From Eledone cirrhosa (taxonomy: Eukaryota): DNA of 64,000 nt. The position numbers and the translations under genes are program-made. The notes below the pieces were generated by a model. That model saw only the letters and a program-made list of their open reading frames with translations, searched no databases and had not been told where the DNA came from. This document shows positions 8,610 to 62,214 of this stretch, piece after piece; position 1 is the stretch's first letter; each line of letters opens with the position of its first letter. The DNA is taken from the NCBI GenBank assembly GCA_964016885.1, contig OZ024740.1:94364001-94428000 (forward strand). The letters run 5' to 3'.

Positions 8610-8817
8610 AATTTCTATGTTTACTATGAGATCAGCAATTTGAACCTAGGGAGAAAATCGATTGAACAGAACCCACAGCCTTAAGGATACGATTCTTTAT
8701 CGACTCCAAAAGTGTGAACCAACTAACGTCGGTTGAACATGAACTTAGAACGTAAATGGATGTAGATCAATGTCGCAAAGCATGGCATCCAACGCTCTAA
8801 CGATACAGCCAATCCAA
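8610..8817 (-). mobile_element. Degenerate tRNA-derived SINE, same family as 37152-37340
   Basis: tttatcgac..., gaacttagaacgta..., aagcatggcatccaacgctctaacgatacagccaatcca align with the copy at 32461-32649. Confidence 0.6.
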
Positions 8818-14018: not shown

Positions 14019-14073
<55 letters not shown>

Positions 14074-14075
<2 letters not shown>

Positions 14076-14338
14076 TAGAAATTGGAATAAATGCTCTGAA
14101 ATAGCGATATATATGTGAATATAGACATAGAATATTCGAAAATATTCTGTATGTTTATAATAAACATTTTGAAGACTAATCGCTATAGAATAGAATACGT
14201 CACGTATTACAATTAGATTCTCGATAAAAGCAAGGGAAGTAATCTACGCGTTTCATTCTTGTTAGAAATCATCAGGACTACATATCCAGTGCTTTTATCG
14301 AGAATGACACAGCTAGAGACTTATAGAATACTTAGCTG

Positions 14339-14340
<2 letters not shown>
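14074..14340 (-). repeat. Inverted partial copy (~265 bp) of the 310-bp unit, directly abutting the array
   Basis: Reverse complement matches unit positions ~14507-14773 with one 1-bp deletion; bounded on the left by (TA)n. Confidence 0.95.
14217..14305 (-). ncRNA. Type I hammerhead ribozyme in the inverted copy
   Basis: Exact reverse complement of 14541-14629. Confidence 0.85.
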
Positions 14341-17061
<2,721 letters not shown>

Positions 17062-18162
17062 TGTATGAATATATCTATATATAACATTTAGGTGCAAAAT
17101 AGTTGTCACACATATTGATGCTTTGACAAACAGATGCTAATATATGTTCTACTCTCAAAAGGCATAGGACAACAATATGATTAATGATAGAACTTCTGTG
17201 AAATACATGAATATAGACGATGTAACATTACTGCAAGCATTAAAAAGGTTGAAATAAAATTCTACTTAAATTGTGTCAATCAACAAAAATCATAAATATA
17301 ACCGAAAACCTCATGGATTTGTTTACCATCTCAGGATTGGTTGGGCTAGGATATCTATGCCAACTTCTGGAAACAATTTTCGAAAGTAATTCAACATTGC
17401 ATGGCATAGAAACATAACATTGCCTCGTGTATACACTCGGATAGTAGTAACTTAAACATAGGAGAGTCCCATAATCATATAATGTTAGCTAGAAACAGCT
17501 TCATCCATAAAATATTTTGTATACATACATCACAACAAAGAATCATAAGGCACAATGTTTTCATTCCATACTCAACCAAGTGCCACTCTATGAGGTCACA
17601 TAATACAATGTAGGTCCTTGTACATTGGAAGTACCGTTCCCGAGTCTGCACATACGGACCGCGTGAGGAGGAGAGCTTCTTCTATTCTTCTATTCTTCTA
17701 TTAACAAACATATTGATAGATCCCACATCCAAGAAAGTGACGTAACCATAGGTGCGATAGAATGGAATGTGTTTAAGTTAAGAAAGAAATTGGACATTAT
17801 CATCATCAAGAATAAACAGCAACAACAAAAAACAGAGATAAATATTAAATTGGAAATAAAGGAAGGCAGTGCAAATATAACGACCCTATGTATGAGTATT
17901 TCAGATATGTAGTAAATTAAGGAAGACCCCATCGATCGTTCGCTTTTGTAGGAATAATTTGCCCCTTGTATAATCCTGTTGCAATGGCATCGATTTTTTT
18001 AATTTTATCTGTCATATATATGATTATTGAAATGTGTTATATTACCTATACAATGTCTCACACTTTCTCTTTATATATATATAGGTAAGTTATTCCCGGT
18101 TGAATCGGAGGTAACCACAGTAAGTATCGTACTCAATACATAGTAGAGTATGCAAGTGTTAA

Positions 18163-18437
18163 TATAGATGAGATTCTACATGACTAGAACTGTTTCATTC
18201 TTTAGAAATCATCAGGAATCTGGCCTTCCAAAAATAAATGTTGTGGTATTTATATATGTTCAGGTGGTAGGAGAGGGTGGGGATTGGGATGGGTGGAAGT
18301 CACTGGTTGAAAGAAAAGGGAATTCATTTAAAGCTCTTTCTTTTTGGCTATAATTTATATTTAGAGAGACACAGGCAGAAAGAATCCTATAAACAAGTTC
18401 AGAATGGAGTGCCACTCCTTATATTTAAGTTTCTCTT
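18163..18437 (-). mobile_element. PLE pseudo-LTR-like dispersed repeat; second copy at 23972-24248 (+)
   Basis: Colinear similarity over ~275 bp between the two loci; contains an HHR motif. Confidence 0.7.
18172..18220 (-). ncRNA. Type I hammerhead ribozyme motif, core intact
   Basis: Minus strand: gattc-CTGATGA-t-ttct-aa-agaa-t-GAA-Aca-gttctagtca-tgT-A-gaatc. Confidence 0.7.
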
Positions 18438-18444
18438 AAGCTAA

Positions 18445-18651
18445 CAATATACATATACACACATATATATACGCATATATATATATACATATACATATAT
18501 ATATTATAAATACATATGCATACATGTATATATATACACACACACAGACGCATACATAGACACATATACACACATATTCACATATACACATATATATATA
18601 TACATACACACACATATATATATATATATATACACACACAAATACACACAC

Positions 18652-19380: not shown

Positions 19381-19460
19381 TAGATCTGAAGAGCTATATC
19401 TTTCCATTGGAAATTCTCTGAATTTCCAATCTTTTGATAAGCAAAACCGTCGGTCATAGC
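19381..19460 (+). ncRNA. Degenerate long-stem-II hammerhead (GAAA>AAAA)
   Basis: CTGAAGA-gct...attggaaattc-tct-gaatttccaat...agc-AAAA-ccgtcgGTC; homologous to 24452 and 43412. Confidence 0.6.
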
Positions 19461-19559
19461 ACTAGAAGAGGTAAATATTTAAATCGTATTTTAATACATT
19501 TAAATAATTGTTTAATGTTTACTTGTTACGCTCATATATATATATATATATACATATAC

Positions 19560-20270
19560 ACATAAAGAACCACCGATGGGTCTCGGAAAACTTAAACTCG
19601 TTCTTCCGTAATCTAGTATTTAGTATAACTATAGAATCTAATATGACTAGGGCAAACCTTTTAGTTGTCACTCTCGACCTATATACGTCCTTCAATTAGC
19701 CATACATAAGACTCTCCTACTCCACCACACCTAAGCTTGCTAGGAATATAGCCGATCACAATTCTAAAAAAATTAAATAAGCCAACCACCTCCGATCCCA
19801 ATCCCCGGACTGACCTTGTGTACTTGCCTAAATAAGCAAGCCTGCCCACTTGAAAACAAATGCCTGAGAAATGATATCGTATACAAATGCGATGTCATCT
19901 CAGGCACCGATGATTGCCACAACAAAAAGACTTACATCGGCATGACTTCCAATAACTTTAAGACGACGTAGTATGCTCATGCCTACTCTTCAGAGGACCG
20001 GACAAATCAAAGCAGACAACACTCGCCTCCTATGTTTGGGACCTCAAGAGGAACTCCACCCCCTTCACGCTTAAATGGAAAACACTCCAGTAAGCGCGCT
20101 CATACAACGGAGGACACAATACTGCGATCTTTGTATCTCAGAAAGCTAAGAAATGTTATTCGCCAACGGCCCGCTACTGAACAAACTGTCTGAACACTGC
20201 CCGAACTGCATGCACAAACACTTTGTATCTTTCAAATACCTTAAGCGAGTGTTAATGCCCGATGGCTAAA
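19560..20270 (+). pseudogene. Penelope-like element fragment (RT thumb remnant + GIY-YIG endonuclease)
   Basis: Manual translation gives ITIESNMTRANLLVVTLDL, then CPLENKCLRNDIVYKCDV...KTYIGMTSNNFK...TTLASYVWDLK...CDLCISE, with stops and frameshifts. Confidence 0.8.
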
Positions 20271-20573
20271 AACGACTTCCCCTTTTCTTTTTTTTTTTAA
20301 ACGCCAGCTGACATAATACCCACTCTACCCCCTTCTCACTCCACCTCTACCCCTCCTCAACCTTAAACACGGCACTATGGTTATGTAAGTACCTCTTTCC
20401 TATGCGCATTTTATTTTCTGCTTGTAGAGCTGTTTTTTATGTGCCTATGTATATACGTATATTCATGAGTACATGTGTGTATGCATTTGTATGAGTGGCC
20501 GTTCGTTTGTATGCATATCGCTGTGTATACGTGCGTTCACATGTACCTGCACATGGGCAGGTTTGTGTATGTT

Positions 20574-20625
<52 letters not shown>

Positions 20626-20668
20626 TGTATGTATATGTATTTATATATATATATGTATGTCTATAAGT

Positions 20669-20707
<39 letters not shown>

Positions 20708-21112
20708 ATTTGAGTATATGTTGGTTGTATACCAACACCTCAGTATGCAGATTGGAGCACACGACGAAGTGCGCAGGTTGGTTTGGTTACTCCGGAGTAA
20801 TGTAAAATAAAATAAAATATATAAGTCAAATATGATTCCAGTTCCTCAGTGAAATAACAACCCAACCAGGAACCGGGCATATCAGAGTATTGACTATGTT
20901 ATACACCTCAACAACTTGTGTACTCGTCTCTACCACACTAATTCGGATGCCTGAACAGGTCACAACCAAAGATGGTTTTATAAATATAGTTTCCATTTAT
21001 TTAATATCGTATATATATATATATATATATATATGCGTGTGTGTGTGTATACATGTATGTATGTGTGTGTGTGTATGTGGAACCTACAACATACCGTGGA
21101 AATCTCTGTGTA

Positions 21113-21283
<171 letters not shown>

Positions 21284-21289
21284 ACGGCG

Positions 21290-22975
21290 ATGAATTAGTT
21301 TTGCGAGGTTCTTGATATGAAATCGTGTGTCGAAACAAATATTGTTATACATGGGTAGGGTCATATTTGTGTAATAATATTGCGAGAATTAATAATAGAA
21401 CACACTCACTGTTTGGTTGGTTTTCGGTTGTTTCTTTATATCGGTTAATTTTATTTATTCGATCCTCAACGTTGCCATTGAATGACCAACTGTCAAACAT
21501 AAAGATACAATATACACACAATACATATATATATTCTATCAAAGTTATTTCGTTGCGCATCTGCAACATCGTCGGTCTTGCTATTATGATTACTCCCGTT
21601 GCATTGTATGCTGATGCCACTTTTATTTAGTCTGTTTATTTATTTATTTATTTGTTTTGTTTGTTTGAATGTGTATTGGTTAATGTATTCTATCTTAGTT
21701 TACTAGTGTTTGTTTATATGTGTTTGTTGTTATTGTGCTTATGTAAGCATTTATTTATTTATTTACTTATCTATATTTCTCTTAGATCAGTATTGTTTGT
21801 TTGGGTGTTGTTGTTATCCCATTCATTTTTTCTGTTCAGCCTTGGCCTTCTCAGTTCTATTTCGCTGGCCTCTCTGATTTGCCTATCTGCTGGGTCATTT
21901 ATAAGTTTAGATATTATTCTAACTTCTATGTTATCTATGTTACCGTTGTGTTGTCTGGCATGTTCGTATAGTACTTAACCGTGTTTTTGTCCTTTTAGTT
22001 CCCCCCAGTGTTGGTTATACTCTGATGTATGGAATTAGTTATCTGCTGGATGCTTTCCAGTATGCTACGTTCTAAATCAAACTTGTTAGGGCTCTCTTGT
22101 GGGGATGTCCTTATTACTATATTGATGCCGTCTACGTAAGGAGAGAACATGATGAGGTCTATGGAGGTCTCATCAAGGAGATCTTTGAGTCTCCTTTCCC
22201 ATCATACCATAAAAAAGGTTGGCAACGTCACCAGCTATGTTGACGCCAATGGATGTTCCATCATTTTGGGTGTATATCTTCTCGTTGAACTTGAATATGT
22301 GGCCCTTTCAGGTAGGTTTGATACTAGCCCCTATTGCATGTGCGACCATTTTTCTTACCTGATCATTGTTTTGTGGGGTCCGTATAGTTTTGGTCCACCC
22401 AATCCACTTTCCCATGGGAGTCTTTTTTACCATTGAGGTTATGGTGGGGTTCTACCTCTTATGGGTCTACTGAGGCAGAAACGTCTAAGGTCATGGCTGT
22501 CTAGGTAGTCACTGTCGTAGGTAAGTCTAATTTAGAGGCCCAGTTCCTCTGTGTCGACGTCGCAGAACTCCACCTCACTTCTCAATGATCATCTCCACAC
22601 ATTTTTCCACAGCAAAATCAACGTTAATGTATGGGTAGTGTGATATCACATCCATACTGCCTATTATGCAGTTGGATAGGTTCCTGTTTTTGTTGCACTC
22701 ACTGATTCTGCTGTGGAGGCCCTCTGTACTGTTACATACATCTGGTGACATCTTGATTATGGGGCGTATAACCATTGAGAGGAATTAGGAGATCCTGTAG
22801 TTGATAGCTATATTTGCTCCGCATACAGGTCTTGTTGGTGGTCTTGTTGTCGGGTCGTCGACTGTCTTGTGGCATGCCATTGTTGGACGCCTGGAAGTTG
22901 TTGGCAGTGCGTCTGCTTGGCTTTAGCATGTCGGTCCACATCATAATGTGAGCGTTGAGGATTTTGTGTCTTCTA
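21290..22975 (-). mobile_element. Decayed Penelope-like element (second family): RT, end of GIY-YIG, 3' pseudo-LTR
   Basis: ORF 22575-22775 has IIGSMDVISHYPYI (RT motif A); YVDGIN near 22140 (motif C remnant); IREASEIELRRPRLN near 21850. The terminal part matches 27367-27935 and 40955-41480. Confidence 0.72.
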
Positions 22976-23139
22976 TCATGTATTTGCTGTTTACTATTCC
23001 CCTACCACAATCATCAAATCTCTCACTGGTACTGCTAAACTATAGAAACGTTTAATATGTGGGACGGAATACTAAATACGAGATTGTATTGAAATAATTT
23101 TATGAGTTAGTAGTAATCGCCCAAATCTATCTTACAGTG

Positions 23140-23312
23140 ACAGGTCAACAAGTTGGGGCCAACATTTTCATTTAGTCCAGAATAAGCCGTCGAAACGGCT
23201 TGAGCTCAGCCGTCGGGGTCCTACTGGTGCCTATTACCCACTCTACTACCCTAAGTATTGAGTACTTCGGTGTGATATGTCCATCAGGTTCCTTACCACA
23301 TTTCCTTTGCTA
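23140..23312 (+). mobile_element. Terminal fragment of the PLE family seen at 28188-30488
   Basis: cgaaacggcttgagctc..gtcggggtc..ccactctact..cctaagt.ttgagtact..ggttccttaccaca matches the reverse complement of 28190-28330. Confidence 0.75.
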
Positions 23313-23328
23313 TATATATATACATATA

Positions 23329-23812
<484 letters not shown>

Positions 23813-23971
23813 CCCAATATTTTGACGGGTTTATAGAATTCTTTTGGCATTTGTCACTCTAAGTAGAGCTTTAAAGAATTAGATTTTAGAGAATTTCCGT
23901 TTTCTTTATATCCATCAAACATGACCGACCCCAAACATCTTATAGACATCCGAAATATAGGCATTTTTAGG

Positions 23972-24248
23972 TTAAGAGAAACTTAAAAATAAGGTGTTGC
24001 ACCGCATTCTGAACTTGTTAATAGAATTATTTCTGCCTTTGTCACTCTAAATATAAATTATAGCCTTAAAGAATTAGCTTTTAATGAATTCCCTTTGCTT
24101 TCAACCAATGACATCCACCCATCCCACTCCCCAACATCTCCTACCACATGAAAGGTTATAAATACCACAACATTTACTTTTGGAAGGCCTAATTCCGGAT
24201 GATGTCTAAAGAATGAAACAGTTCTACTCCTGTTGAATCACATCTATA
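23972..24248 (+). mobile_element. pLTR-like repeat with a mutated HHR core (CGGATGA)
   Basis: Homologous to 18163-18437; aattc-CGGATGA-tgtctaaagaat-GAAACAGttctactcCTGT-T-gaatc. Confidence 0.7.
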
Positions 24249-24451
24249 AGAACAAAATATTATCTCACAGAGAGAAATTAAAAAGCCCTTGGAAGATAAT
24301 AGATAATTTAAAATCTTTAAAATTAAAAGTTAATGAGGTTTATGCATGAAGAAAAAGGAATTAAGAATAGTATTACATTGAGCGCATGCGTTAGGCAGGG
24401 AGCAAAATATTTACTTGCTATGGGGCTTGCAACATTATGGCGTGGAAATAG

Positions 24452-24532
24452 GGTGTCTGAAGATTCATTTCTTTCCATTAGAAATTCTCTGGATTTCCAA
24501 TCTTTTGGAATGATGAAACCGTCGGTAACAGC
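24452..24532 (+). ncRNA. Long-stem-II type I hammerhead, core intact
   Basis: tgt-CTGAAGA-t-tcatttc...gaatga-t-GAAACCgtcGGTA-aca. Confidence 0.68.
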
Positions 24533-24615
24533 AATGTAATAGGTGATTATTTAAATCGTTTTTTAATTTATTTAGAGAATTGTTTAATAACCGCTTGCTT
24601 CGCTACTTTTATATC

Positions 24616-27366: not shown

Positions 27367-27932
27367 GTTCTGCGAGGTTTTTGACATGAAATCGTGTGTC
27401 GAATAAATATTGTTCTACTTGGGAGGGTCATATTGTTGCAAGAATATTGCCAGAATTGATAACAGAACACACTCACCGTTTGGTTGGTTTTTGTTTCCGT
27501 ATATTTTATATCAGTTCATTTATTCGGTCATCAATGTTTACCATTGACTGAACAGCGGTCAAAAATCCATATATAATATAGACTCAAACACATCTAACAA
27601 AGTTCTTTCGTTGCACATCTGCATATTAAATAAACATCTGCATATTAAATAAAGATGGCGTAGACAAAAAATACAACAGAAGGAAACATAATAGCACAAC
27701 TGACGATGCTGCAAATGTGCAACGAAAGAACTTTGTTAGACTATATATATATATGTTTGTTTCAATATTATATCTGTATTTTTGACCGTTGGTCATTCAA
27801 TGCTAAACATTGAGGGCCGAATAAATTAACTTATATGAAATATACAGAAGCGAAAACTAACCAAACAGTGTGTGTGTTCTGTTATTAATTCTGCCAATAT
27901 AATTACAACAACATGACCCTCCCCAAGTATTA

Positions 27933-27935
<3 letters not shown>
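27367..27935. mobile_element. Inverted pair of PLE pseudo-LTR fragments (family of 21290-22975) with a degenerate HHR at ~27696-27737
   Basis: 27405-27623 is the imperfect reverse complement of 27710-27935; acaa-CTGACGA-tgctgcaaatgtgcaac-GAAA; flanked by (TA)n. Confidence 0.75.
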
Positions 27936-27993
<58 letters not shown>

Positions 27994-28187: not shown

Positions 28188-28188
<1 letters not shown>

Positions 28189-30488
28189 CAAAGGAATTGT
28201 GGTAAGGAACCAGATGGACCATTACGCAGCAGAGTACTCAACACTTAGGATAGTAGAGTGGGGAATAGGAGAAAATATGACCCCGACGACAGAGCTCAAG
28301 CCGTTTCGAGTGCTATTGCCGAAGTAAATTAGGATGTTTTTCCTGGTGAATAAATAGCCGAACTTTTAAAGGGGGCATTTCATATATGGGAAGATTGTAG
28401 TTGTCAAGGGGATTGGTTAACATTTGTCGCAAACACAAATAAGTATATCATGGTATTTGGTGGGAGGTAGGGGTGGCTTAACTTGCCTGTAGAACAATAG
28501 GCGAGTGAGTGGAGCGGTCAAGCGTTGAAAGTGATATGTATACAGCAGATTCTAAGGATAGTGAATGAAGTGGAGGTGGGGGGTTATCGAATAGGTAAGT
28601 CGAATGAGAGTAGGAGACAATAAAAGCTAATAGAAAGAAAACACATATATATAAAATTAGATAGTGAGGAATGAAGAAACAAAATCACAACACTATCTTA
28701 CACTTACAGGTTAATAAGTTGAGAATAGAAAAAAACTTGTAGAAATTGAGTAGTAACAGAACTAATACAGAATTAAAGGGGTTTAACACGTCTGCTATAA
28801 CTAGTTAGTAAAACGTATTCGGCCAGTTCTTTCATAAAATTACATGAGTGGTGGAACTGATGCTACAGAGGCCCGATGGGCTGAATCAGGTTAGGCGAAG
28901 TGGAAAAGCAGACCAGGAAGAAAATAAAGGGTGGAATGATATGATAGGATGAGACAGGGGGAAGAAGAAGGCAGACGAAAAGAAAAGAAAAGAGATACCT
29001 CTACCTAAGTAAGCTGGGGTTTCCCCTAACTTATTCGGCAAATAAGGGGTATCAGCCCTTCTCTACCCACTCGAGTCGTTATGGTGTTTGAGGGCGAGGT
29101 AAGTCCTACGCAATCTGTGTTTGAATGCGGTTACCAGTTACTCTTTCTTGTTTTGTTGTTGGTCCTTCGTCAAATTCCTGGATGTTACACTTAAACTTGA
29201 AAATGATCTGTACTACCCATACAGTAAACCAAACGCCAACCTGCACTACATCCACCGCCGCACTAACCATCCTAGAAATATCACAAATAACCTTGTTAAA
29301 AACATCTCCCTCCGCATATCTCGTTTGTCCGCTAATGAGCGGATATTCGACGAACACGTACCTCATTACAGCCAGGCCCTCAAGCGGAGTGACTTCCGGG
29401 AGGATATATCCTTTTATCCAGCTTCCCTTAGCGGATCCAGCAGGCGACACCGACGCTCACCCAACGTACCGTGGTTCAATCTTCAACATATTGCTGAGGT
29501 GGCAACACCTATCGGGAAAATCTTCTTTAGACTCCTCGAAAAACAATTCCCACTACAACACGGTTACCACAACATAATAAACAAAAACACCATCAAACTC
29601 TCCTGCAGCACCACTCCTAACTTCGCACAAAACTTCGTCTCCTCCCACAATAAAAAACTCAACCCCTATGGAAGAAATAAACGAGACATCAGTGGAGACC
29701 GACCAGGAAGTGTAACTGCCCTGATAGATCCGTGCCACCTCAACAACAAATGCCGAGAACGTAACGTGGTCTATCAGTGCAACGTGAAGACGGACACCTC
29801 CAACAAAGCTTATATAGGATTAACCGCGTGTGACTTCAAGGCCCGGCTGTACCAACACCGACATACTTTCCGATGCAGCCCATCGGGCCTCTGTAGTATC
29901 AGTTCCCCCACCCCTGTAATGTTAAGCTAGAATTGGCCGAATATGTTTTACTAACTACTTATAGCAGACGTGTTAAACCCCTTTAATTCTGTATCACTTC
30001 TGGTAATACTCAATGTCTACAAGTTTTTCTCTATTCTCAACTTATTAACCTGTAATTGTAAGATAGCATTGTTAATTTTTTTTTCAATCCTCACTATCTA
30101 ATTTTATACATTTTTCTTTCTTTCTATTATCTGTTATTGTCTCCTACTCTCATTCGATTTAGCTATTCTATAACCTTCCTCCTCCACTTTATTCACTATC
30201 CTTAGAATCTGCTATATACATATCACTTTTAACGCTTGACCGCTAACTACTCCCCTAATGTTCTACAGGCAAGTTCAACCACCCCTACCGCCCACCAAAT
30301 GCCATGATAGACTTATTTGTGTTTACAACAAATGTTAACCAATCCCCTTGACAACTACAATCTTCCCATATAAGGAAGTACCACTTTGAACAGTTCGGCT
30401 ATTTATTCACCAGGCTAAAATGTTTAATTTAGTCCAGAAATAGCCACCGAAACGGCTTGAGCTCTGCCGTCCGGGTCATACTTTCTCA
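28188..30488 (+). mobile_element. Penelope-like element with an inverted copy of its 3' end placed upstream
   Basis: Arms 28268-28887 and 29872-30488 are imperfect inverted repeats of ~620 bp enclosing PLE coding sequence; (TA)n on both sides. Confidence 0.85.
29167..29870 (+). pseudogene. PLE RT-thumb, linker and N-terminal half of GIY-YIG endonuclease
   Basis: ORF 29121-29930: FLDVTL..YPYSKPN..YIH..NHP, PWFN, IGKIFFRLLEKQFP, NVVYQC..AYIGLT..FKARLYQHRHTF. Confidence 0.88.
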
Positions 30489-31375: not shown

Positions 31376-32000
<625 letters not shown>

Positions 32001-32396: not shown

Positions 32397-32460
32397 AATA
32401 TATATATATATTTATATATATATATAGAGTGAGAGAGATAGAGAGCGAAAGATAATAGAG

Positions 32461-32649
32461 ATAATTGTTTCTACTTTAGGCACAATGCCAGCAATTACCC
32501 AGTGCATTACTGGTACTTTATTTTATCGACCCCGTAAGGATGAAATGCAAAGTCAACCTCGGCAGGATTTGAACTCAGATCGTATAGGGACGTAACTATG
32601 ATGGAAAGCATGGCGTCCGCCCCTCTACCGATACTACCAATCCACCGCC
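32461..32649 (-). mobile_element. tRNA-derived SINE
   Basis: Reverse complement of 37152-37340 with high similarity; A and B boxes present. Confidence 0.8.
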
Positions 32650-33419: not shown

Positions 33420-37137
<3,718 letters not shown>

Positions 37138-37151
37138 ATAAATATATGTGT

Positions 37152-37340
37152 GGCAGTGGATTGGCAGTATCGGTAGAGGGTCGGACGCCATGCTTTCCAG
37201 CATAGTTACGTCCCTTTACGATCTGAGTTCAAATCCCGCCGAGGTTGACTTTGCCTTTCTTCCTTACGGGGTCGATAAAATAAAGTACCAGTAATGCACT
37301 GGGTAATCGGTGGCCTTGTGCCTAAAGTAGAAACAATTAT
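37152..37340 (+). mobile_element. tRNA-derived SINE resembling the common Octopus SINE
   Basis: A box tggcagtatcgg, B box gagttcaaatccc, body ggggtcgataaaataaagtaccagt, tail ggccttgtgcctaaagtagaaac; family assignment from memory. Confidence 0.8.
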
Positions 37341-37412
37341 ATATATATGTGTGTGTATGCATATATAATGACGAAACATAAGTAAATTGCATGAACTCAT
37401 AATTCTTTATTT

Positions 37413-40858: not shown

Positions 40859-40954
40859 CACACACACATACATACACACCACACACAGACATATATATAT
40901 ATATATATATATATGTATATGTGTGTTGGGGGGGGGGGGGGTATGCGTGTGTGT

Positions 40955-41480
40955 AGGCAAATCAGTGAAGCAACTGAGATAGAACTGAGAGAACCAAAGT
41001 TGAAGAGTAAGATCGAATGGAATAACAGCAACAAGAATACCCAAGCAAACAATACTGCTCTAAGTGAAACATAAACAAATAAATAATCATACACACAAGA
41101 AAATAAAAACAAACACATATAAACACACACTAGTGAACAAAGATAGAATAGAAAAACATGTACAATCAAACACGAATACAACAAACGCATTCGCAAAGAG
41201 AAACAGAGACAATAATAAATAAATAAAATAAAAGTGGCGTAGGCATTACAATTCAACGTAAGGAAACATAATAATACCACTGATGTTTGGGGAAATAACT
41301 CTGAGACACCTGTCTTTTTAACCGTTTGTCAATCAATGATAAACATTGATTGCCAGATAAATTAACTCTGGAGATATAAAAGATACATAAATTAAAACCA
41401 ACCCAAACCAAAGGGTGAGTGTGTTATATTATTATTTCTGGCAAAATTATAACAGTATGATCATCCCCAAAGAAAACAAT
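40955..41480 (+). mobile_element. 3' fragment of the PLE family at 21290-22975
   Basis: QISEATEIELREPKL..EW followed by UTR matching the reverse complement of 21340-21890. Confidence 0.75.
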
Positions 41481-41850
41481 ATATATATATGTTGGCTGCA
41501 AACTCTGCTAAGAATATTTAGAACGCTTGCCAGATTACAGAAAAAGGTGCAGATTTAGGCTACGGCCAGCCACACGAGCCTGTAACCTAACCCTTTTTAA
41601 GTGGGGAAAGGCACTCCGTCCGACCAATCCTACTATCTGAGAAACAAAAACACTAACTGAAAAGGAGAACTGGTTGGCCAGAACATAGCAAGCATCAATA
41701 ATAATAGGTTTAGACCCTCAAGACAGGTACAGATTAGTTCTGGCGGCACCCAATATATATATATATATACATATATACATACACACACACACACACACAT
41801 ACACACACACACATATACACAGACACACACACACACACACACATACACAT

Positions 41851-42964: not shown

Positions 42965-43411
42965 TGCAAAATAATTAGTGAATGAAAGTGTTACAAGTTC
43001 GTTAAAGCATATCTTTATAACATGTTTTAACGGCTTGTAACTCTTTAATTCACTAATACTTTTGCTTATTACAGCTCTCCTTAACCTATACACTAAATAT
43101 TAACTTTCTCTATTATTTAACCCTGATATCCCAAGCATTGAACACTTACGCATGAGCTTTTGCCATGTAATATTCTGTATTGCACATCTTTATACCTCTT
43201 ATATATATAAATATTTAAAGGAGATCAATATTGCCACATATACTAAGTACCCCTGGAAATCTATAGGGTGTCTATGGTACAGTTGTTGTTCTATGGTATA
43301 CATTTGACAAACAAGAACTATAACATTGAGATGAGCGGAGTAAGTAAGATTGAAACACTTTTTTTTTTATAAATAAAAAATTAATATTTAAATATTTAAC
43401 CTTTCTATTTG

Positions 43412-43489
43412 CTCTTACCGACGGTTTCGCCTCACACAAAATTGGAAGTCCGATGGACTTCCAATGGAAATGCTTGGTTCTTCAGAAAG
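43412..43489 (-). ncRNA. Long-stem-II type I hammerhead, core intact
   Basis: Minus strand: cttt-CTGAAGA-acc...attggaagtcc-atc-ggacttccaat...ggc-GAAACCgtcGGTA-agag. Confidence 0.7.
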
Positions 43490-43901
43490 TATTTTCCCCT
43501 ACATAGGACGAACGCCCCAGAAACGGCAACATATATTGCATTCTGCCAGCTAGTGCAGGATCGAATGAGACCGTAAACTTGACCTACACATAAATTAGCC
43601 CTAAATATAAGCGGAAGTAAACATAGACGTGTTGTCTATCACGTCACTAAAAACAGAAACTAGGTAAAACAACAGATTTTTGTCTCTACACATAGGAGAA
43701 TATATAAAAAGGAGATCAATATTGCCACAGGTACTAAGTACTCCTGGAAATATATAGAGTGTATACGGTACAGTTATTTTTTTAGGGTATCAAATGGAAT
43801 GGGTAAATATTTAAATTATATTTTTTAAATCATTTGAAAAAATTGTTTGAATCGTACTTATTCGGCTTATCTAAATATATATGTATATATATATATATAT
43901 A

Positions 43902-46281
43902 CTAGCAGAAGTACTCGGCGTTGCCCGGGTGTAAGTCGACCTTTCGTTTGTTGTTAAAATGTTTGAAAGTTGCTTCCCGCGCATCACAGGTGCAAAAACC
44001 TTCGAACCTCAAGGAAAAAAACAGAGGTTAGTATACGCAGGTATGTAATTGAGAATAAATAATGGATCAATTGTAGGTTCACAGTGTATCATTGAAATTG
44101 TTCTTTGCAAGACTGACGGAAGTCAAATTAACTTGAAATTGAATTTTCAGTTGATTTTTAAATCAGGGTGAAAAAGTCGATTTTTTTCAATTTATTTTTA
44201 TACAATTTTGGCGCTCACATGTGCAGAAGAAGAAATAAAAGGGACTTTATCTGATTCGAGGCTTAATGGACGAATCATTTGCGACAGTTTTCACGAAAAT
44301 CAGACGTTCCTGTAAAAAATTATCCCATCTGCAACTATGCCTTGTTTTTTGCGCAAAGTCGAACCCCGCTTCAGTTTTATTGATTTTTTACATGAATGCG
44401 TGACTTGGGAAGTAGATTTGAGTAGCGACAGACCTGTCCCGGTGAATTTGCTATATGTGAAAAAAAGTTGATCAAAATTGCGTCTAGGGTTATTGCCCTT
44501 TGCAACAGCCTCAAGAACATGTAATTAAAAAGATTTATCATGGACTATCGTGCACGTTGGTATTGTGTTTAGCCTGCGAAAATCGGTGATCAAATGATGC
44601 AACAATAAGCCATAATGATGACGTTTAAGCGAGTGGCAAGGAATTGATGCGACATAGATAGCCATGGGAGTCTTGAAGGAGGACAGAGGTCAGGCAAGAG
44701 AAATGGCCGAGGAGGGATGGTGGCTGACAGTGCATGGAGGCGGCATCCTGAGGCATGAATATGTAGTGGGGCGACGGCCAGCAGGCAAGGAAGAGGGCAG
44801 GGGTGGACGGTGGCAAGGATGCCGCATGGTGAGCGATGGAAGTCTTGAAGGAGCACTGCGGGCAGGAAAAAGAAAGGGCCAAGGAGGGGATGGCGGCTGA
44901 CAGAGCATTGATGCGGCATGGTGATGCATGACGATGCAGTGGGACGACGGCGTGCAGGGAAGGGAGATGGCCGGGATTGACGGTTGCAGGGATTCCGCAT
45001 GGTGAATCATGGCACTCGTGAAGGACTATGTCGTGCGGGTAAGGGAGAGGGAAGGGGAGGGCATGGTGGCTGACAGAGCATGGATGCGGCATGGTGAGGC
45101 ATGACGATGCAGTGGGACGACAGCGTGCAGGGAAGGGAGAAGGAAGGAATTGATGGTGGCAGGGATGCGGCTTAGTTAGGCAAGGTAGTATAGAAGGAGG
45201 ACGGCGGGCAGGCCAAAAATAAGGGCTGAGGAGGGAATGGTGGCCGACAGGGCAGTAATGCGGCATGGTGAGGCATGATGATGCAGTGGGACAACGGCGT
45301 GCAGGGAATGGAGAGGGCAGGGGTTGACGGTGGCAGGGATGCGGCTTTGACAGGCATGGAAGTCTTGAGCTCTCCCTGAGTGTAGGCAATGGAAATGGGC
45401 AGGCGTGGATGGTGGCATGGATTCGACATGTTGAGCCGTGGCAGTCCTTAGGGATCACGCAGGGCAGGCAATGGAAAGGGCCGGGTAATGAATTGCAGCT
45501 GACAATGCAGAGATGCGCATGGTGATGCACAACGATGCAGTAGGTCGACGGCGTGCAAGGAAGGGAGAGGGCAGAGTTTGACGGATGCCTCATTATGCTA
45601 CGGTAGTGGAACCACAGGAATGAAAGGCGCGCATGGAAGCTCGATGATCGCTTGAGAAGACTGGGTGCAATAGAGCATGATGCGCGGCGGTATAGTGTTG
45701 ATAGTAGTTATATAAGAAATGGAAGAATCGGCATAAAAGGTTTGCTGAATATGGTGAGCGTTAATTTAAATAGACTTACGTAGATAATCCTGATAGGTTG
45801 AACATTATTTGCATGGCGGGAGTGGCGACAAATGTAAGCAAGAACAATGGCGTTTTTCGGTTGCCACATTTTTTATTCTGGAGGTCCGATTATCGATTTT
45901 ATTTTTACAATTTCAAGTACCCCACGTTAATCCCCGCATGAAAATACTTACCTACGTTAAATTTCATTTGAATCGGACAAATTTCGTAACTATCGATTTT
46001 GGCCTCTGGTGATCCAATTATCGATTTTTCGAAAATTTAATGTAGCGCACGTTTATCCCCGGATCAAAATACACACTTGTGTCGAGTTTCATCGATATTT
46101 GAAAATATCGATTGTTGACTTCTCGGGTCCCGATTATGGATTTTTCGAAATTTTCACGTAGCCCATTCCACTCTACGCGTTGAATTTTATATATGTGTGA
46201 GGTTTCATGAAAATTGGATGAACGGTGTAGAATGCAAGTTCGGAACACCAAACAACGCCCATTTTCACTTTATATATAAGA
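43902..46281 (-). mobile_element. Non-autonomous Helitron (~2.4 kb)
   Basis: Minus strand starts A|TCttatatataaag and ends cccgggcaacgccgag-tacttctg-CTAG|T: 5' TC, subterminal GC hairpin, 3' CTAG, A/T target, no TSD. Confidence 0.8.
44660..45590. repeat. Diverged GC-rich tandem repeat (~173-bp period) inside the Helitron
   Basis: ggc(t/c)gacag...gcggcat..tgaggcatga.gatgcagtgggacga recurs near 44722, 44895, 45068 and 45242, with a further copy near 45498. Confidence 0.8.
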
Positions 46282-47193: not shown

Positions 47194-48640
47194 ATGGACG
47201 TTTATGATTTGGATTATTCAATCAAAAATATACCTACTCCCTCCAACACGAATTATACCACATTGCTTATAGATAAAATCGAACAAGTGGTTAAAAGAAT
47301 GAGATGGAAGGCAATGATTTACGATGGACTATTCAGTGCTGATACAAATGATTGTTTTGACATACAATCTCGTAAATACCCACTTAGAATTAAAGACATG
47401 GTCAACTTCGTATTAGACCTTGTTAATTGAATTAGTGATATCAAATTTCGTATGTACAACAATAACTTTCAAGCTAAACTTTCTAACGATATCTCTTATC
47501 TTAAAAATTTTACAAACACATTTCTTCTTTCCGATAAAACTAAAAATCTCTTTGAAGTTAATACTATTTTGTTTAACCAACATTTAACCAATTGTATTAC
47601 CTACAAATATCAATTAAATAACAATAACATCTACAATACTATTAATAATGAAGCTAAAGTACTAGCTAGTTTTTTTTTTAAATAGACAACCGGATTGAAA
47701 CCCTAGCTAAACGTAAAGCTTATGTTACCCTTAAAGACCATACATTAGACTTTACTAATCGACCTAGTTGTAGACTGATTAACCCGGCTAAATCAGAAGT
47801 TGGCCTTGCAAGTAAAACAAAACAATCTTAAGAAAAATAATTTTCCAAATTATAACTAATACTGACTTATCACAATGGTTAAGTACATCCCATGTTAATT
47901 CTTGGTTTAAAAATAAGTGTAGATTTACCCAATTTCGATATTGTTGATTTTTACCCCTCTATTTCCTTATTAAAGAAAGCCTTAGATTTTGCAAGACCTT
48001 TTTCGAAATTAGACATATATAATACATTATTGTTCATGTTAGGAAACTCTACTCTTTACTAATGAAAGTATTTGGGTTAGAAAGTCAAGCCCTGAAAACG
48101 CTTTCGATATTGCAATGGGTTCATATGATAGTGCGGATATGTGTGACTTAGTAGGATTATTCCATCTCCACACCCTTAAAGGGAAATTTCCTTCCCATAA
48201 TATCGGTTTATACCGTGACGCTGGATGAATGCCCATTACAGGGCAAATGTAACACCGAATCCGTTGTATATGAGGCCAAATTAACACATTTGATTAACAA
48301 CTTGCCAGCCAGGAGTGAACGATATGTTGGTATGACTCAAGACAGGTTAAAACTAGGTTTATGCGCATGTCGCTTCTTTTAAACACTCTGATAAAACAAC
48401 AGCAACGGCCCTCACTAATAAGCTGTGGGATTTCAAAGATAACAACATCCTGTACTCTATCGATTGGTCTATTTTAGACCATTCGAGGGAATACCAAAGG
48501 GGCACAAAAATGGTTCTTTGTGTACCACTGAAGAATTTTGAATTCTACAGAATTTTAAAGCCACTTCAACTTGCTTTAACTCCAAGACCGAGATCTTCAG
48601 ATGTTGTCCTCAACTGAAATCACATCTGCTTCGTAACTGG
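47194..48640 (+). pseudogene. Penelope-like ORF from its N-terminus to GIY-YIG, internally deleted and frameshifted
   Basis: YSIKNIP..IEQVVKRMRWKA; SDKTKNL; [21 protein letters not shown]; FDIVDFYPSIS; FDIAMGSYDSADMCDLVG; GLYRDAG; CPLQGKCNTESVVYEA..YVGMT. Confidence 0.88.
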
Positions 48641-49012
48641 ATATACATTCCTACGATGACTCAAACACCTTGAACTTCTTCTTTGATACGATGACTTAAC
48701 CACATTGAACTTCTTCTTTGCTCTTTACGCCTTATATCTTCTACGACTTTTATTACTCTCAGAACTCACTTTCTGTACCCTTATTTTCCCTTTCTCCCTT
48801 ATCTCCTCTTATTCTTTAACTATTATTATGTTATTTATTTCCTTATTCCCACCTACTCTCTATCTTACCCTTTACATACCCTCCCCCTTTTGATTTTTAG
48901 ATATTAATTTTACGGGTATGTATGTTGTCGTGTATATGTGTATATAAGTGTATGTATATATATATATGTGTATATGTATGTATACATTTTATATATATAT
49001 GTGTATGTGTAT

Positions 49013-49742
49013 GCCGTTGCTCGCACCAACCGGAGTTATATGGTCTTTAAAGCAACGAAATACCAATGATGGTTGGAAGATCACTGATGAAGGACTAACT
49101 TTATTCATATGTAACCCATTAGCAACCCCGCAGCAGATTTAACTCATATTGACACATATTTTCCCCCCGCTGTTACACGTCTATTTCGTTCTTACTGCTT
49201 CCTCTTTCTCTGTATCTTTACCCTCTCTAGCAGTCACTCTCTCTGTTAGCCTCTTCCTCACCCTTCACTCACTCATTCTCTGTTACTACCTCTCCCCCTC
49301 CCCCTTCTTCCCGTTTGACCTGTGCGTAGTTCTTTCTTTCGCACCCTTGGTCTGGCAGGTCGCTTTTTTCTCTCTCTCTCGTCTACGATTTCACAGAACT
49401 TACGTTCACCGAAATCACAGACTAGATCCCTTATTCCTCCCGTTAGACATGTACGGAATTCCTTCCTTGCTTACATTCCAACCAGGTTTGATGGTATTTA
49501 TTCTCTCTCGTTGACAATTTCGCCGAATTTAAATTCATAGAAATTTGAGACTTGACTCCTTCTTCCTCACTTTTCGTTGCTTCACCATTTTTGTTTATTT
49601 ACACTCGTGTCCCTTTTATTTACGTGTCCCACCGACTTTGTTTAGCCGTTGCTCGCACCAACCGGAGGTATATGGTCTTCAAAGCGATGAAATACCAATG
49701 ATGGTTGGAAGATCACTGATGAAGGACTAACTTTATTCATAT
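49013..49742 (+). repeat. Direct ~98-bp repeats (49013-49110 and 49645-49742), tandem pseudo-LTR ends of the upstream PLE
   Basis: gccgttgctcgcaccaaccggag.tatatggtctt.aaagc..gaaataccaatgatggttggaagatcactgatgaaggactaactttattcatat occurs twice. Confidence 0.85.
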
Positions 49743-49841
49743 ATATATATGTATATGTGTGTGTGTGTATATATATATATTTTTTATATATACATATATT
49801 TAGGTTTATTTTGTGCATTTGATTACTACGTGCGTTTGGTC

Positions 49842-50102: not shown

Positions 50103-52005
50103 ATGGCCGACTCACAGCTGAACCTAGTAGCTGAAAGCCTTACTCACAAACTAACACCTCACACCGACACCACCATTGTAAATATTACTATGTTTGCCAA
50201 CACTAAAAATATAAGCAGTATCAATATTTTAATTTTGTCTGAGGCAGACATTCATTTCCCGCAAGTGTTAAAGCCGCCACCCCCACCACCACCACAGCGA
50301 CAACAGAAACAAAAGAAAAATATTAACTCGTGATATCGAAATGAATTCATCCAAAATGAACTCTTCCACACCGAACACCACTGACACCTACACCACCACA
50401 ACTGAAACTAAAATTAACAACAGCAACAATGACATTAAGAAAACCACCCTGAGTTTTGCCAGAGTACCAAAGCAGTGCGAAGCATTCCAGGTGACTCAGG
50501 AGGAATTAGAAGAAGCCAAAAAAATGGTAAAGAAAGATGGGTGCAGGGTCAGCCTGACCCCCAGCCCCACCACCACCTAATAAAATGGAGCATCGGCGCC
50601 TATGCACCGTGTATTATAGAACGATTAACATAAAATCGCGGCGAGTGGAACGGGCATCCGAGTCCCAAATCCAAAAATGTTGGGACATGTGTGGGCAAAA
50701 AAACCCCACATCAGACGTGGGCAGAAATATGGAACCGTGGACGTGTTCTTTGAAACACCACAGGAGGATAGAGAACATTCCAAGGCCCCATTAAGAAGTG
50801 ACGACTTCACACTTGTCCCAAGATATTGTGGCCAGAGACTGGTGAAGATCAGGTGACCCACGTTCCACCGGCCATCGAAATTCACTGGCTAATATCTGCC
50901 GTCCTCGCCGGAATCGTAGCCAACACCAAGATAATCGAAATAGCGAAAGAAAAGCAGGGGAACTGGTCCGGATCTGGGATGGAGCTCCTGATTCAAGCGG
51001 ACCAAAAAAGCATTGAGGAGATCCCAGAGGAAATAGACCTTAATGACGGCTGCCACCTCGCCGTAATCGTCGAGGGCAGAAGGCCTAGGTGTGTATTTTG
51101 TGGTGAAGGAACCCACCTAAGGGCTTTCTGCCCTCAGACTAAAAGTTTGAGGCCACCTCTCCTACCCATCTCAGTGATTCAACCATCAAAACCAGCAGCA
51201 GCAGAGATGGCAGCAACAACTGTAGCAGCAACAACAGAGGCAACTGTAACAGCAACAACAGAAGCAACTGTAACAGCAACAACCCCAGCAACAGTAGCAA
51301 AACCAACACCATCACCACCACCTCCCAACGCGCCAGAACTACCACCTGCGCCTACACCATACCACGCCACAACCAAAACCAACGCCTGTGGAGGATTTTC
51401 CACTCCCCAGCCTTTCACAACTGGAGACAGATTGTGACGATGAGGTTTGAAGAAAAAAGGTTTGAAGAAAAAAGATAAAAAGAAACAAAAAAAGAAAACA
51501 ATTCTCTTCCCTCCCCCTCCAAAAACAAAATACAGAGGGAAACAAATAAACTATCAAACAATAAAGTTAGGACAGATATGCCCCCATCCACACCAGCATC
51601 ACCAACCCCATCACCACAAACACCAACGCCATCAGCATCATTAACCACAACACCACCATCACCAACACCACAAAAGTCACCAAAAAGCGAAACCGAAACA
51701 AACCCACAACAAGCGCAAACAATCTAAACACCCAAAACGATACACACTACACAGCATTAAATTTGAACAACAACCAATTATTACACTACATCCAACACAA
51801 CACCAGCATCACAGAAAAAGACTACACAACCCAACAGTTCACACCACTTCCACACATACAAATCACTCGCATCACACAGAAAACGTACACGACACTAAAC
51901 CAAAAATTCCCCAAAGACATCGGAGACTTCCCAGAAACATTCTCCAGGAGGATTTATAAGGACATCCTTCCGGAGGAGGCCACAAGCAGTGAAAAGGATG
52001 GATAA
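50103..52005 (+). pseudogene. LINE ORF1 (gag-like) with CCHC zinc knuckle and Thr/Pro/Lys-rich tail, frameshifted
   Basis: ORF 50826-51437 contains GRRPRCVFCGEGTHLRAFCP; flanking fragments lie in the same orientation. Confidence 0.75.
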
Positions 52006-52069
52006 ACCATACCTCCTCAACGAGAAGTAAGGTAAGTGATCTTTCCCATCTTTTCCACTCCATTTCAAC

Positions 52070-55000: not shown

Positions 55001-55461
55001 TTCGGGTTAAACTCTACAGGCATGGAGGTGCCGTCAACCGGGCATGTCCGAGATGCGCGAAGGGCGAAGAAACCGTCCTGCACGCACTCGTCCATTGTCC
55101 GAGCATTGCTGACTTGTGGGATTATGTCGAACACCTGCTGTCACGTGTAGGACGGATCCAGCTATCAGCTGAGTCCATCGTGAGGATTGCCCCGCCCTCT
55201 TCCTTTAGCCGGGAAGGGCAGGCAGTTTTTATCTGTCTGGTGGCCATGGCGAAAGAGATAGTATGGTGGACACGTTTGAAAGGGCTGAAGACGAGCACTT
55301 ACCTCTTCGGTGATGCCCTGATTAACTTTTTCAAATTTCATTTGAAAAGGAAAATCAGGGTAGAGAGGGAAGTGTTCTCTTGCCAGCATTTTGTTGAAAG
55401 ATGGTTGAGAGAAGCAAGTATGGCGCGAGTGAATGGGCCTACTTTGAGTATATATCTGTAA
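52070..55461 (+). pseudogene. LINE ORF2 (APE-RT-zinc finger) with multiple stops and frameshifts
   Basis: Fragments align with the intact copy; YADD>YAHD; 24-bp deletion between ggact repeats near 53320. Confidence 0.92.
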
Positions 55462-55734
55462 ATTAAATGTGGAAAAGAGGGAGAGGGCATTTGCCCTGGT
55501 AGTCAGGGTCACTGTGGTGTTTTAATGGGCTTTCTCCACAAATGTCCCTCGGAAATCTCCCCCCTATTGGGGAATTTTTCTTTGTTATTTAATTACATCC
55601 TCTGTTTTTTTACACGCAGAATGCCCATTTGTACCGTCCTGTATTATCCTGTACTGTCCTTAATCTCTACTTTATGTAAACCCTTGTGGTTAATAAAGAA
55701 AACATTATTATTGTTATTATTATTATTATTATTA

Positions 55735-58412: not shown

Positions 58413-58434
58413 CTTATTATTATTATTATTATTA

Positions 58435-61400: not shown

Positions 61401-62214
61401 CCAATCTCTTCGGAAGAACTTTCGGGCCAGGGCCTATGGACAACTTCCAGAAATCTCTGGCCTGGCAGTGCTACCGAGGAGCCTTGCCAGTTCGGGATAA
61501 ACTCTACAGGCATGGAGGTGCCGTCAGCCGGGCATGTCCGAGATGCGCGCAGGGCGACGAAACCGTCCTGCACGCACTCGTCCAGTGTCCGAAAATTGCT
61601 GACTTGTGGGTTTATGTCGAACACCTGCTGTCGCGTTTAGGACGGATCCAGCTATCATCTGAGTCTATCGTGAGGATTGCCCCGCCCTCCTCCTTTAGCC
61701 GGGAAGGGCAGGCAGTTTTTATCTGTCTGGTGGCCATGGCGAAAGAGATAGTATGGTGGACACGTTTGAAAGGGCTGAAGACGAGCACTTACCTCTTCGG
61801 TGATGCTCTGATTGACTTTTTCAAATTTCATTTGAAAAGGAAAATCAGAGTAGAGAAGGAAGTGCTCTCTTTCCAGCATTTTGTTGAAAGATGGGTGAGA
61901 GAAGCAAGAATGGCCCGAGTGAATGGGTCGACTCTGAGTATATATCTGTAAACTAAAGGTGGAAAACTGGGAGAGGGCACTTGCCTTGGTGGTCAGGGTC
62001 ATTGTGGCTTTTTACTGGGCTTTCTCCACAAATGTCCCTCCGAAGTCTCCCCCCTATTGGGGAATTTTTCATTGTTATTTTTTGTTACATCCTCTGTTTT
62101 TGTTTTTTGTTACATCCTCTGTTTTTGTTTTTTACACGCAGAAATGCCCATTTGTATTGTCCTGCACTGTCCTTAATGTCTACTTTATGTAAACCCTTGT
62201 GGTTAATAAAGAAA

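Follow-up and report, generated by a model that had tools for sequence, protein, structure and literature searches.

A tandem hammerhead-ribozyme array bearing the marks of Penelope-like element insertion between (TA)n tracts

How did a non-coding tandem array come to lie between two (TA)n tracts with an inverted copy of its own unit at its head? The question concerns insert A, which consists of a 310-bp repeat array (array A) and the inverted copy, and which lies in the window, i.e., the whole 64-kb stretch of DNA analysed here. The window is AT-rich animal DNA packed with microsatellites. It holds five families bearing a hammerhead ribozyme (HHR) and four remnants of Penelope-like elements (PLEs). 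The first-pass annotation proposed that PLE machinery inserted a non-coding ribozyme RNA at this site. Our analysis supports the proposal more strongly than was argued there, because of the tail-sized offset between the two ends, the same layout on PLE-derived sequence of the window, the four remnants, and a palindrome at the inversion junction. Insert A was probably copied in from RNA by PLE enzymes acting in trans, with (TA)n as the target. Coordinates are collected in Table 1, and published systems are described from the available parts of the cited sources.

Table 1 Features of insert A and of related elements in the window
Feature	Position	Strand	Basis
Left (TA)28.5 tract, likely half of the target microsatellite	14019..14075	.	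Repeat finder
Inverted 5'-truncated copy, 3' end towards left (TA)n	14074..14339	-	Self-alignment, 266/267
'Tail' of 31-43 nt, phases ~84/93-126, on the inverted arm only, not at the array 3' end	14074..14115	-	
HHR motif (type I) on the inverted arm; cut site predicted after 14245, intact and read through	14225..14290	-	
Inversion junction with GT overlap, inside a hairpin with 9-bp stem and 6-nt loop	14323..14346	+	
Direct array A, 8.3 x 310 bp	14338..16901	+	Repeat finder, periodicity
Type I HHR motif of unit 1, recurring every 310 bp, 8 times	14556..14621	+	
3' end of array A, phases 84-93, 9/10 in-register match to (TA)n	16901..16910	+	
Right compound tract (AT)46.5(AG)34.5; (AT)46.5 part at 16901-16993	16901..17061	.	
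Hydra-like broken PLE; coding 19580-20240	19580..21009		
Broken PLE, Neptune/Nematis type by motif	21283..22995	-	
Head-to-head family D pair, offset 41-44 nt, (TA)n on both sides	27368..27936	.	
PLE1: Hydra-like remnant (ORF 29103-29930) between (TA)n tracts; its inverted 3' copy spans 28188 to at least 28887	28188..30487	+	
Solo family B: one full unit with inverted tail-only ~30-nt arm (31848-31881, +), (TA)n on both sides	31428..31885	-	
Family B retrozyme array, unit of ~447 bp with six intact HHR motifs in all, 3' end abutting (TA)n	34133..37150	-	
Hydra-like broken PLE; coding 47194-48590	47194..48930		

Tandem Repeats Finder reports a 310-bp period in 8.3 copies at 14338-16910. The exact periodicity runs from 14338 to 16901, where it stops at unit phase 84. 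A single substitution (16249) is found among the eight full units, i.e., one in 2,564 bp, and the units show no higher-order variant pattern. The inverted copy described 5' of the array in the first-pass annotation is present as 266 bp at 14074-14339. Read in reverse complement, it covers unit phases 170->310->126 and is identical to the array unit at 266 of 267 positions, one base of a GG being missing near 14176. The two arms are positioned head-to-head, so that both outer ends are 3' ends, and they overlap by 126 nt. Insert A is made of unit sequence alone, which runs straight into (TA)n on both sides, in agreement with the earlier description of the flanks ((TA)28.5 on the left and (AT)46.5 on the right). 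The unit has a GC content of 34%, its longest stop-free frame is 59 codons, and it has no LTR structure. No ORF of at least 100 aa lies between 11595 and 17690, so insert A carries no PLE ORF for reverse transcriptase (RT) and GIY-YIG nuclease.

Near-identical tandem units between long microsatellites assemble poorly, and consensus polishing can homogenise units, so the inversion or the copy number might be an artefact of assembly or of chimeric reads. We consider such an artefact very improbable. The arms are not mirror images (there is a 139-nt spacer, a different end phase, and a private 1-bp deletion), the flanks of insert A are unique, and the same layout is found in older, diverged insertions. 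A mirror-image read artefact in particular is rejected, as the unique left flank matches nothing on the right side.

The unit carries a type I HHR motif with a CUGAUGA core at phase 234 (14571 in unit 1), GAAA, and U.U at the base of helix II. Helix III consists of 1 bp and is capped by a palindromic CGCG. The predicted cut falls after phase 264, which corresponds to 14601+310k in the array and to 14245 on the inverted arm. The motif is complete in all eight full units of array A and in the inverted arm, with five of five pairs in helix I. A pattern scan of the window finds 17 HHR cores (nine in A, six in array B, one in C, and one in E), compared with 0.025 per window and a maximum of one in 40 shuffled windows. 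Rfam gives no match at its gathering threshold. A narrow Rfam scan gives hammerhead HH9 below threshold (19.2 bits versus 52; E 0.073), and in an E-value scan of 13500-38000 the best 150 of 266 matches, those listed, are swamped by microsatellite matches. As a monomer, the RNA of unit A is predicted to be strongly self-paired (z -4.4), with none of 100 shuffles equally stable. The predicted energy of the CGCG palindrome is -9.5 kcal/mol as a self-duplex versus +6.0 kcal/mol as a monomer loop. Hammerheads with a weak helix III are reported to act as dimers (PMC4209133).

Non-LTR retrozymes are defined as head-to-tail repeats of ~150-450 bp with GC <45%, a type I HHR in at least two consecutive units, no coding capacity, and no LTR structure (PMC7229834). 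Insert A agrees with this definition in repeat size, GC content, consecutive HHR motifs, and in being non-coding and non-LTR. Because the definition fits, unit A can be assigned, on its motifs and layout, to this known class. Two other identities were considered and rejected. A tRNA-derived SINE is at odds with the tandem layout, and neither a tRNA nor a match to the Pol III A- and B-box patterns is found in unit A. Non-autonomous elements of the Helitron/Helentron type have core repeats between distinct terminal modules. Insert A has no distinct terminal modules and its unit abuts (TA)n, which argues against a Helitron/Helentron with an internal array.

The two 3' ends of insert A lie at different phases of the unit. 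The right end is at phase 83-93 and the left end at phase 124-126, giving an offset of 31-43 nt, the spread of which results from the overlap of the ends with (TA)n. The longer 3' end belongs to the inverted arm. On the left, insert A and (TA)n have 2 nt in common (phases 125-126). On the right, the genomic sequence is ...TTCA-TATATATAT, compared with ...TTCA-CATATATAT in the unit. The earlier remark that the unit itself reads acatatatat at the 3' end thus holds apart from one mismatch, and the 9/10 match at phases 84-93 is unique among the 310 windows of the unit. By simple arithmetic, an end offset of 28-45 nt is expected by chance in ~6% of cases (18/310). Tracts of (TA) with at least four repeats make up 5.2% of the window, and 869 of 119,384 non-microsatellite positions (0.7%) have (TA)4 within the 3 nt that come after them. 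A target-site duplication cannot be read inside (TA)n.

In PLE insertions, as described, a partial tandem is joined by a neighbouring inverted copy that is truncated at its 5' side, and one of the ends is longer by 30-40 bp (PMC8557442); a PLE tail of 31 bp is on record (PMC3846280). Insert A has the features of this type, namely the inverted head-to-head 5'-truncated copy, the tail at one end (31-43 nt), and the (TA)n target. The tail-sized offset, which was overlooked in the first-pass annotation, is the most specific PLE mark.

The layout is not confined to insert A. Four head-to-head insertions are found in the window (A, solo B, D, and PLE1), and all four have the tail layout, with the longer 3' end on the shorter arm in each pair. 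The direct arm of solo B is exactly one unit, ending at its own start point, and its end reads ...CCATTT/ATAT. The inverted arm corresponds to unit positions 2-31, with an offset of 32-39 nt; it forms a near-perfect palindrome with the direct arm and duplicates the start of that arm. The HHR core of solo B is mutated. Array B and solo B are ~20% diverged, yet their 3' ends fall at the same base. Array B contains internal (TA)n of variable length, and its 3' end ignores these internal TA runs. The first-pass annotation had counted a fixed linear position of all ends against PLE insertion; the expectation is the reverse, as PLE machinery predicts fixed 3' ends, which are seen in both independent insertions of family B (2/2). 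The PLE at 21283-22995 has family D as its 3' UTR, and further family D copies occur at 27368-27936 and 40954-41482. In PLE1 the end offset is 77-82 nt, and the long end recurs at 23311.

Among alignment-defined 3' ends, (TA)4 follows within 1 nt in 9 of 14 rows of the HHR and PLE families, compared with none of 15 comparison-repeat rows and with the background of 0.7%. Omitted from the count are rows in which C, D, E, F, PLE1, or PLE2 align to themselves, a row of A that marks a phase boundary inside the array, and microsatellite-only matches of PLE2. The 15 comparison rows include 6 self rows and 2 rows internal to the D element. By family, the ends at (TA)4 number 2/2 for A, 2/2 for B, 3/4 for D, 2/2 for PLE1, 0/1 for C, 0/2 for E, and 0/1 for F. 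Several points speak against the PLE reading. Only one insertion of family A is present in the window, the PLE1 offset of ~80 nt exceeds the published range of 30-40 bp, and none of the four alignment-defined ends of families C, E, and F is at (TA)4. The same side of the balance holds the lack of similarity of unit A to the PLE 3' regions of the window, the broken state of all four PLE remnants, the homology of the right end to its target where the PLE studied in vitro used non-homologous starts, the unreadable target-site duplication, the post hoc nature of the hairpin frequency, and the sub-threshold Rfam match.

Families C and E are short HHR-bearing repeats. Family C lies at 18085-18448 (-) and 23963-24254 (+); its HHR has 26 of 28 core and helix II bases as in A and a longer helix III, and its 3' part is weakly similar to the PLE1 tail (z 4.3). 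Family E lies at 19385-19534, 24456-24610, 43331-43486, and 43802-43899 and has an HHR-like motif with a long helix II; its copies stop at about one position, mostly close to (TA)n. A 101-bp direct repeat (95%) at 49013-49113 and 49645-49745 contains CTGATGA and ends TTTATTC/ATAT. The two copies bound ~530 bp and may be a pLTR pair.

The motif TTCCWWTT is located 0-11 nt before the (TA)n junction at 14087, 20991, 31435, and 34141. These four are 4 of 41 matches to the motif in the window at that distance from (TA)4, or 4 of 27 when the 14 internal array copies are subtracted, and the motif is absent from the ends of families D and E. It is common to A, B, and one Hydra remnant and is possibly a shared start signal, although it was chosen post hoc.

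All four PLE ORF remnants in the window are broken. The three Hydra-like ones match short RT/GIY-YIG proteins (best E 7e-42, 9e-45, and 2e-14). RWK and DKT are found at 47194-47670, CxCx5C at 19819, and CxxC and CxH at 20114-20245. On these motifs, the remnants at 19580-20240, 29103-29930, and 47194-48590 are assigned to the Hydra clade as likely members, the motifs being scattered over different remnants and the assignment being made by motif. In the remnant at 47194, a large internal deletion near 48225 appears to join RT motif C to the endonuclease linker. The Hydra clade, of which a record exists for Octopus bimaculoides, is reported to choose (TA)n for almost all of its insertions (PMC8557442). 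Relatives of the fourth remnant, at 21283-22995, have an RT, a Cx4CxxC linker, and a C-terminal endonuclease; a Naiad-like reading of its RT (21819-22995) is rejected, because the relatives carry the C-terminal endonuclease and the Cx4CxxC linker. For a degraded RT fragment at 22578-22784, the best relatives come from Octopus vulgaris (75% and 71% identity), which makes an octopod host likely. Pfam leaves the PLE fragments unrecognised, with RVT_1 below threshold in only one of five relatives, and an atlas search on the fragments returned no name.

No partner PLE for unit A emerges from the 3' regions of the four PLEs of the window, none of which is similar to it (z -0.9 to 1.5). Its sole matches to 15 other regions of the window are the HHR cores of B and C. 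Four short HHR motifs are absent from the available part of the PMC8557442 supplement.

The junction between the arms bears on how they were joined. The GT overlap at 14338-14339, cited as a microhomology in the first-pass annotation, is real, but an overlap of at least 2 nt occurs in 18.1% of 86,490 simulated junction pairs; as evidence it is at chance level and is rejected. The hairpin around the junction exists because the same 9-mer occurs at unit phases 1 and 178. Hairpins of at least 9 bp arise in 310 of the 86,490 simulated junctions (0.36%) and those of at least 8 bp in 0.97%, frequencies computed post hoc. The loop bases continue the left arm, and the simplest reading is therefore that the left cDNA would have folded back via GT:AC. 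Palindromes at PLE inversion junctions have been read as products of self-priming, possibly on an antisense template (PMC3846280). Self-priming of that kind remains an alternative route that could give the same junction product. No hairpin of note is seen at the family D junction, for which 79 of 200 shuffles are folded equally well; this junction carries a 19-bp duplication.

Further repeats are present in the window. An L1/Tx1-like LINE at 58388-61951 has an open 1187-aa ORF (endonuclease, RT, and zf-RVT), and a broken copy at 51988-55734 is 91% identical to it; both end in (TTA)n, and the minus strand of the interval between the two carries an RTE-like remnant. A SINE-like repeat, which seems to resemble octopus SINEs, is found at 32455-32649, 37152-37346, and 8740-8816, and one copy adjoins the 5' end of array B. 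A GC-rich broken non-LTR element at 523-2730 has an RT and a C-terminal cysteine/nuclease-like region. A GC-rich 173-bp tandem repeat at 44633-45588 has ~78% unit identity and is negative in the HHR pattern scan. Two ~56-bp copies at 23329-23386 and 23760-23812 face each other across a 375-bp (CA)/(TA)/(TG) microsatellite.

Inversions are not unique to PLEs, and polymerase-theta end joining produces junctions that resemble the fold-back. Insert A could accordingly have been made by twin priming of a LINE, for which an open L1/Tx1-like ORF with endonuclease and RT domains is at hand in the window, or by end joining that captured cDNA at a fragile (TA)n hairpin break. We regard a non-PLE origin of either sort as improbable. 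Both L1-like 3' ends in the window enter (TTA)n rather than (TA)n. Twin priming on one RNA yields adjacent, non-overlapping arms, but the arms of insert A overlap by 126 nt and the inverted arm of solo B duplicates the start of the direct arm. In addition, neither route predicts an offset of 30-40 nt or a fixed 3' end.

The sequence itself gives the geometry, the offsets, the hairpin, the read-through of cut sites, and the PLE remnants. PLE-mediated insertion could have proceeded in five steps. PLE protein would bind the RNA around phases 84-126, which are 130-172 nt past the ribozyme cut site. The GIY-YIG nuclease of the PLE would then cut both strands of the palindromic (TA)n. Each new 3' end would prime reverse transcription at one of two internal starts 31-43 nt apart, the right start being aided by the 9/10 pairing of the target with the only long AU run of the unit. 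The right cDNA would extend over 8.3 units and the left cDNA over 0.86 unit, both through intact cut sites, with a ligated circle or an uncleaved multimer as the template; otherwise a short insert would have been amplified later as DNA. The left cDNA would finally fold back (GT:AC) and copy 7 nt, gaining 9 nt of homology by which it would be joined head-to-head to the other cDNA. The 5' inversion and the tail would thus be two sides of one two-ended priming event. In vitro, a PLE tail is the gap between two RT starts, and both strands of the target are cut and extended (PMC11167929).

The template could be a circle or a linear RNA. Neither outer end nor the junction is at phase 264, so the first-pass annotation was right that the ends do not coincide with the HHR cleavage site. 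Its further argument, that such ends fit a circular template, has no weight, because linear PLEs also end past the cut and start reverse transcription internally. The ends of insert A lie 130-139 and 170-172 nt past the cut. By a count from the table in PMC8557442, the Hydra-clade consensus sequences whose HHR is on the 3' side terminate 30-355 nt past the cut in 24 of 24 cases (median 79); a family whose motif is 5'-located and a duplicate row on the minus strand are left out of this count. For a purified PLE, reverse transcription has been shown to begin at internal sites on RNA that is linear and uncleaved (PMC11167929). Intact cut sites are traversed by both arms (8 + 1). A cleaved linear monomer is excluded by this, and the template, if RNA was copied at full length, was a circle or an uncleaved multimer.

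On the sequence evidence, the chances of a circular RNA template for insert A are about even. The HHR type, which is expected to act as a dimer, the near-identical units, and the one-lap solo B point weakly in that direction. With a ribozyme activated by dimerisation, an 8-mer should be cut whereas a monomer circle should be spared. More specifically, and only tentatively, the whole footprint may be that of one PLE enzyme complex that cut both strands of (TA)n and primed both ends on one retrozyme circle, at starts ~35 nt from each other. A single event would then account for the 'tail' as well as for the inverted 5' copy. In solo B, exactly one lap would have been completed, with the second cDNA stopping at the first start. 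In array A, reverse transcription of the rolling-circle kind would have gone on for 8.3 laps, guided in part by the pairing of the AU run with the target.

The same PLE machinery could instead have worked on a long, uncleaved linear transcript from a source array that was young and homogeneous, with no circle involved, a possibility that we place well short of an even chance. The one PLE tested used mainly unprocessed RNA as its substrate, and its HHR mutants still inserted (PMC11167929); eight of nine Xenopus retrozyme dimers are uncleaved in vitro (bioRxiv 10.64898/2026.07.22.740005); and multimeric RNAs are found in axolotl (PMC7229834). Array B points the same way, with a two-unit variant pattern in which B2 and B4 differ at 7 columns and B3 and B5 at 8, compared with 12-22 for neighbours; alternating variants are impossible from one monomer circle. 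However, the HHR type of unit A is reported to cleave as a dimer, so that an 8-mer is predicted to cut itself whereas a monomer circle survives, and the direct arm of solo B is exactly one unit, with start and stop at the same point.

The two-unit periodicity of array B also fits local duplication, and expansion at the DNA level is proposed in the Discussion of bioRxiv 10.64898/2026.07.22.740005. A short PLE-style insertion, i.e., the inverted arm and one or two units, might accordingly have expanded in place, e.g., by unequal crossover, and the 8.3 units would then be uninformative on the RNA. We consider this rather unlikely for insert A, as one substitution in 2,564 bp and the lack of a higher-order pattern mean that expansion would have had to follow insertion almost immediately.

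Mobilisation of retrozymes by PLEs has been proposed since 2020 (PMC7229834), and the link was argued by phylogeny in 2026 (bioRxiv 10.64898/2026.07.22.740005). The earlier evidence comprises shared HHRs, co-occurrence, and pLTR phylogeny (PMC7229834; bioRxiv 10.64898/2026.07.22.740005), and the formation of inverted PLE structures has been called open (PMC8557442). A literature search that covered few subscription papers and incomplete supplements found no inverted copies, tails, or (TA)n targeting for retrozyme arrays. The words 'inversion' and 'tail' are absent from the available text of the 2026 preprint (bioRxiv 10.64898/2026.07.22.740005), and 'microsatellite' and 'target site' from that of PMC7229834. 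Insert A is a real case of a young retrozyme insertion that carries a complete PLE footprint; the class itself is known. An enzyme-specific footprint on such arrays is independent and more mechanistic evidence for mobilisation by PLEs. In a genome rich in short HHR insertions, both the retrozyme-PLE link and the origin of the inversions become testable by counting ends, and variant patterns within arrays can tell circular from linear templates.

Comparison with known systems places insert A between retrozymes and PLEs. Like unit A, animal non-LTR retrozymes are tandem, ~300-bp, non-coding repeats with GC <45%, one type I HHR per unit, and a strongly self-paired predicted RNA (Cervera & de la Pena 2020, PMC7229834; Li et al., bioRxiv 10.64898/2026.07.22.740005). 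Helix III of unit A is like that of axolotl HHR_Amex1, and the U.U at the base of helix II is like that of HHR_Amex2 (PMC7229834). Many Xenopus retrozyme families share homology with pLTRs (Li et al.), whereas unit A has no such homology within the window.

EN+ PLEs, especially those of the Hydra clade (Craig et al. 2021, PMC8557442), share with insert A the partial tandem, the inverted copy, the tail, and (TA)n. In both Hydra-clade PLEs and insert A the HHR lies within 30-355 nt of the 3' end. The T..T closing of helix II occurs in unit A and in 14 of 25 Hydra families and is not specific to them (PMC8557442). Unlike EN+ PLEs, insert A has no ORF, consists of one unit repeated 8.3 times, and gave no match to a PLE terminus. 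MRC1 of Chlamydomonas, like insert A, forms non-coding head-to-tail multicopy insertions, which are credited to PLE enzymes (PMC8557442). Non-autonomous PLEs of the MRC1 sort generally have 3' sequence in common with an autonomous family, whereas unit A has no such match in the window.

For Poseidon PAc of Anolis, work in vitro (Frangieh et al. 2024, PMC11167929) shows cleavage and extension of each of the two strands in AT-rich DNA. PAc starts on RNA lacking homology with its target, whereas the right end of insert A pairs 9/10 with (TA)n. As in the route proposed for insert A, two internal RT starts define the PAc tail, and the ends lie off the HHR cut.
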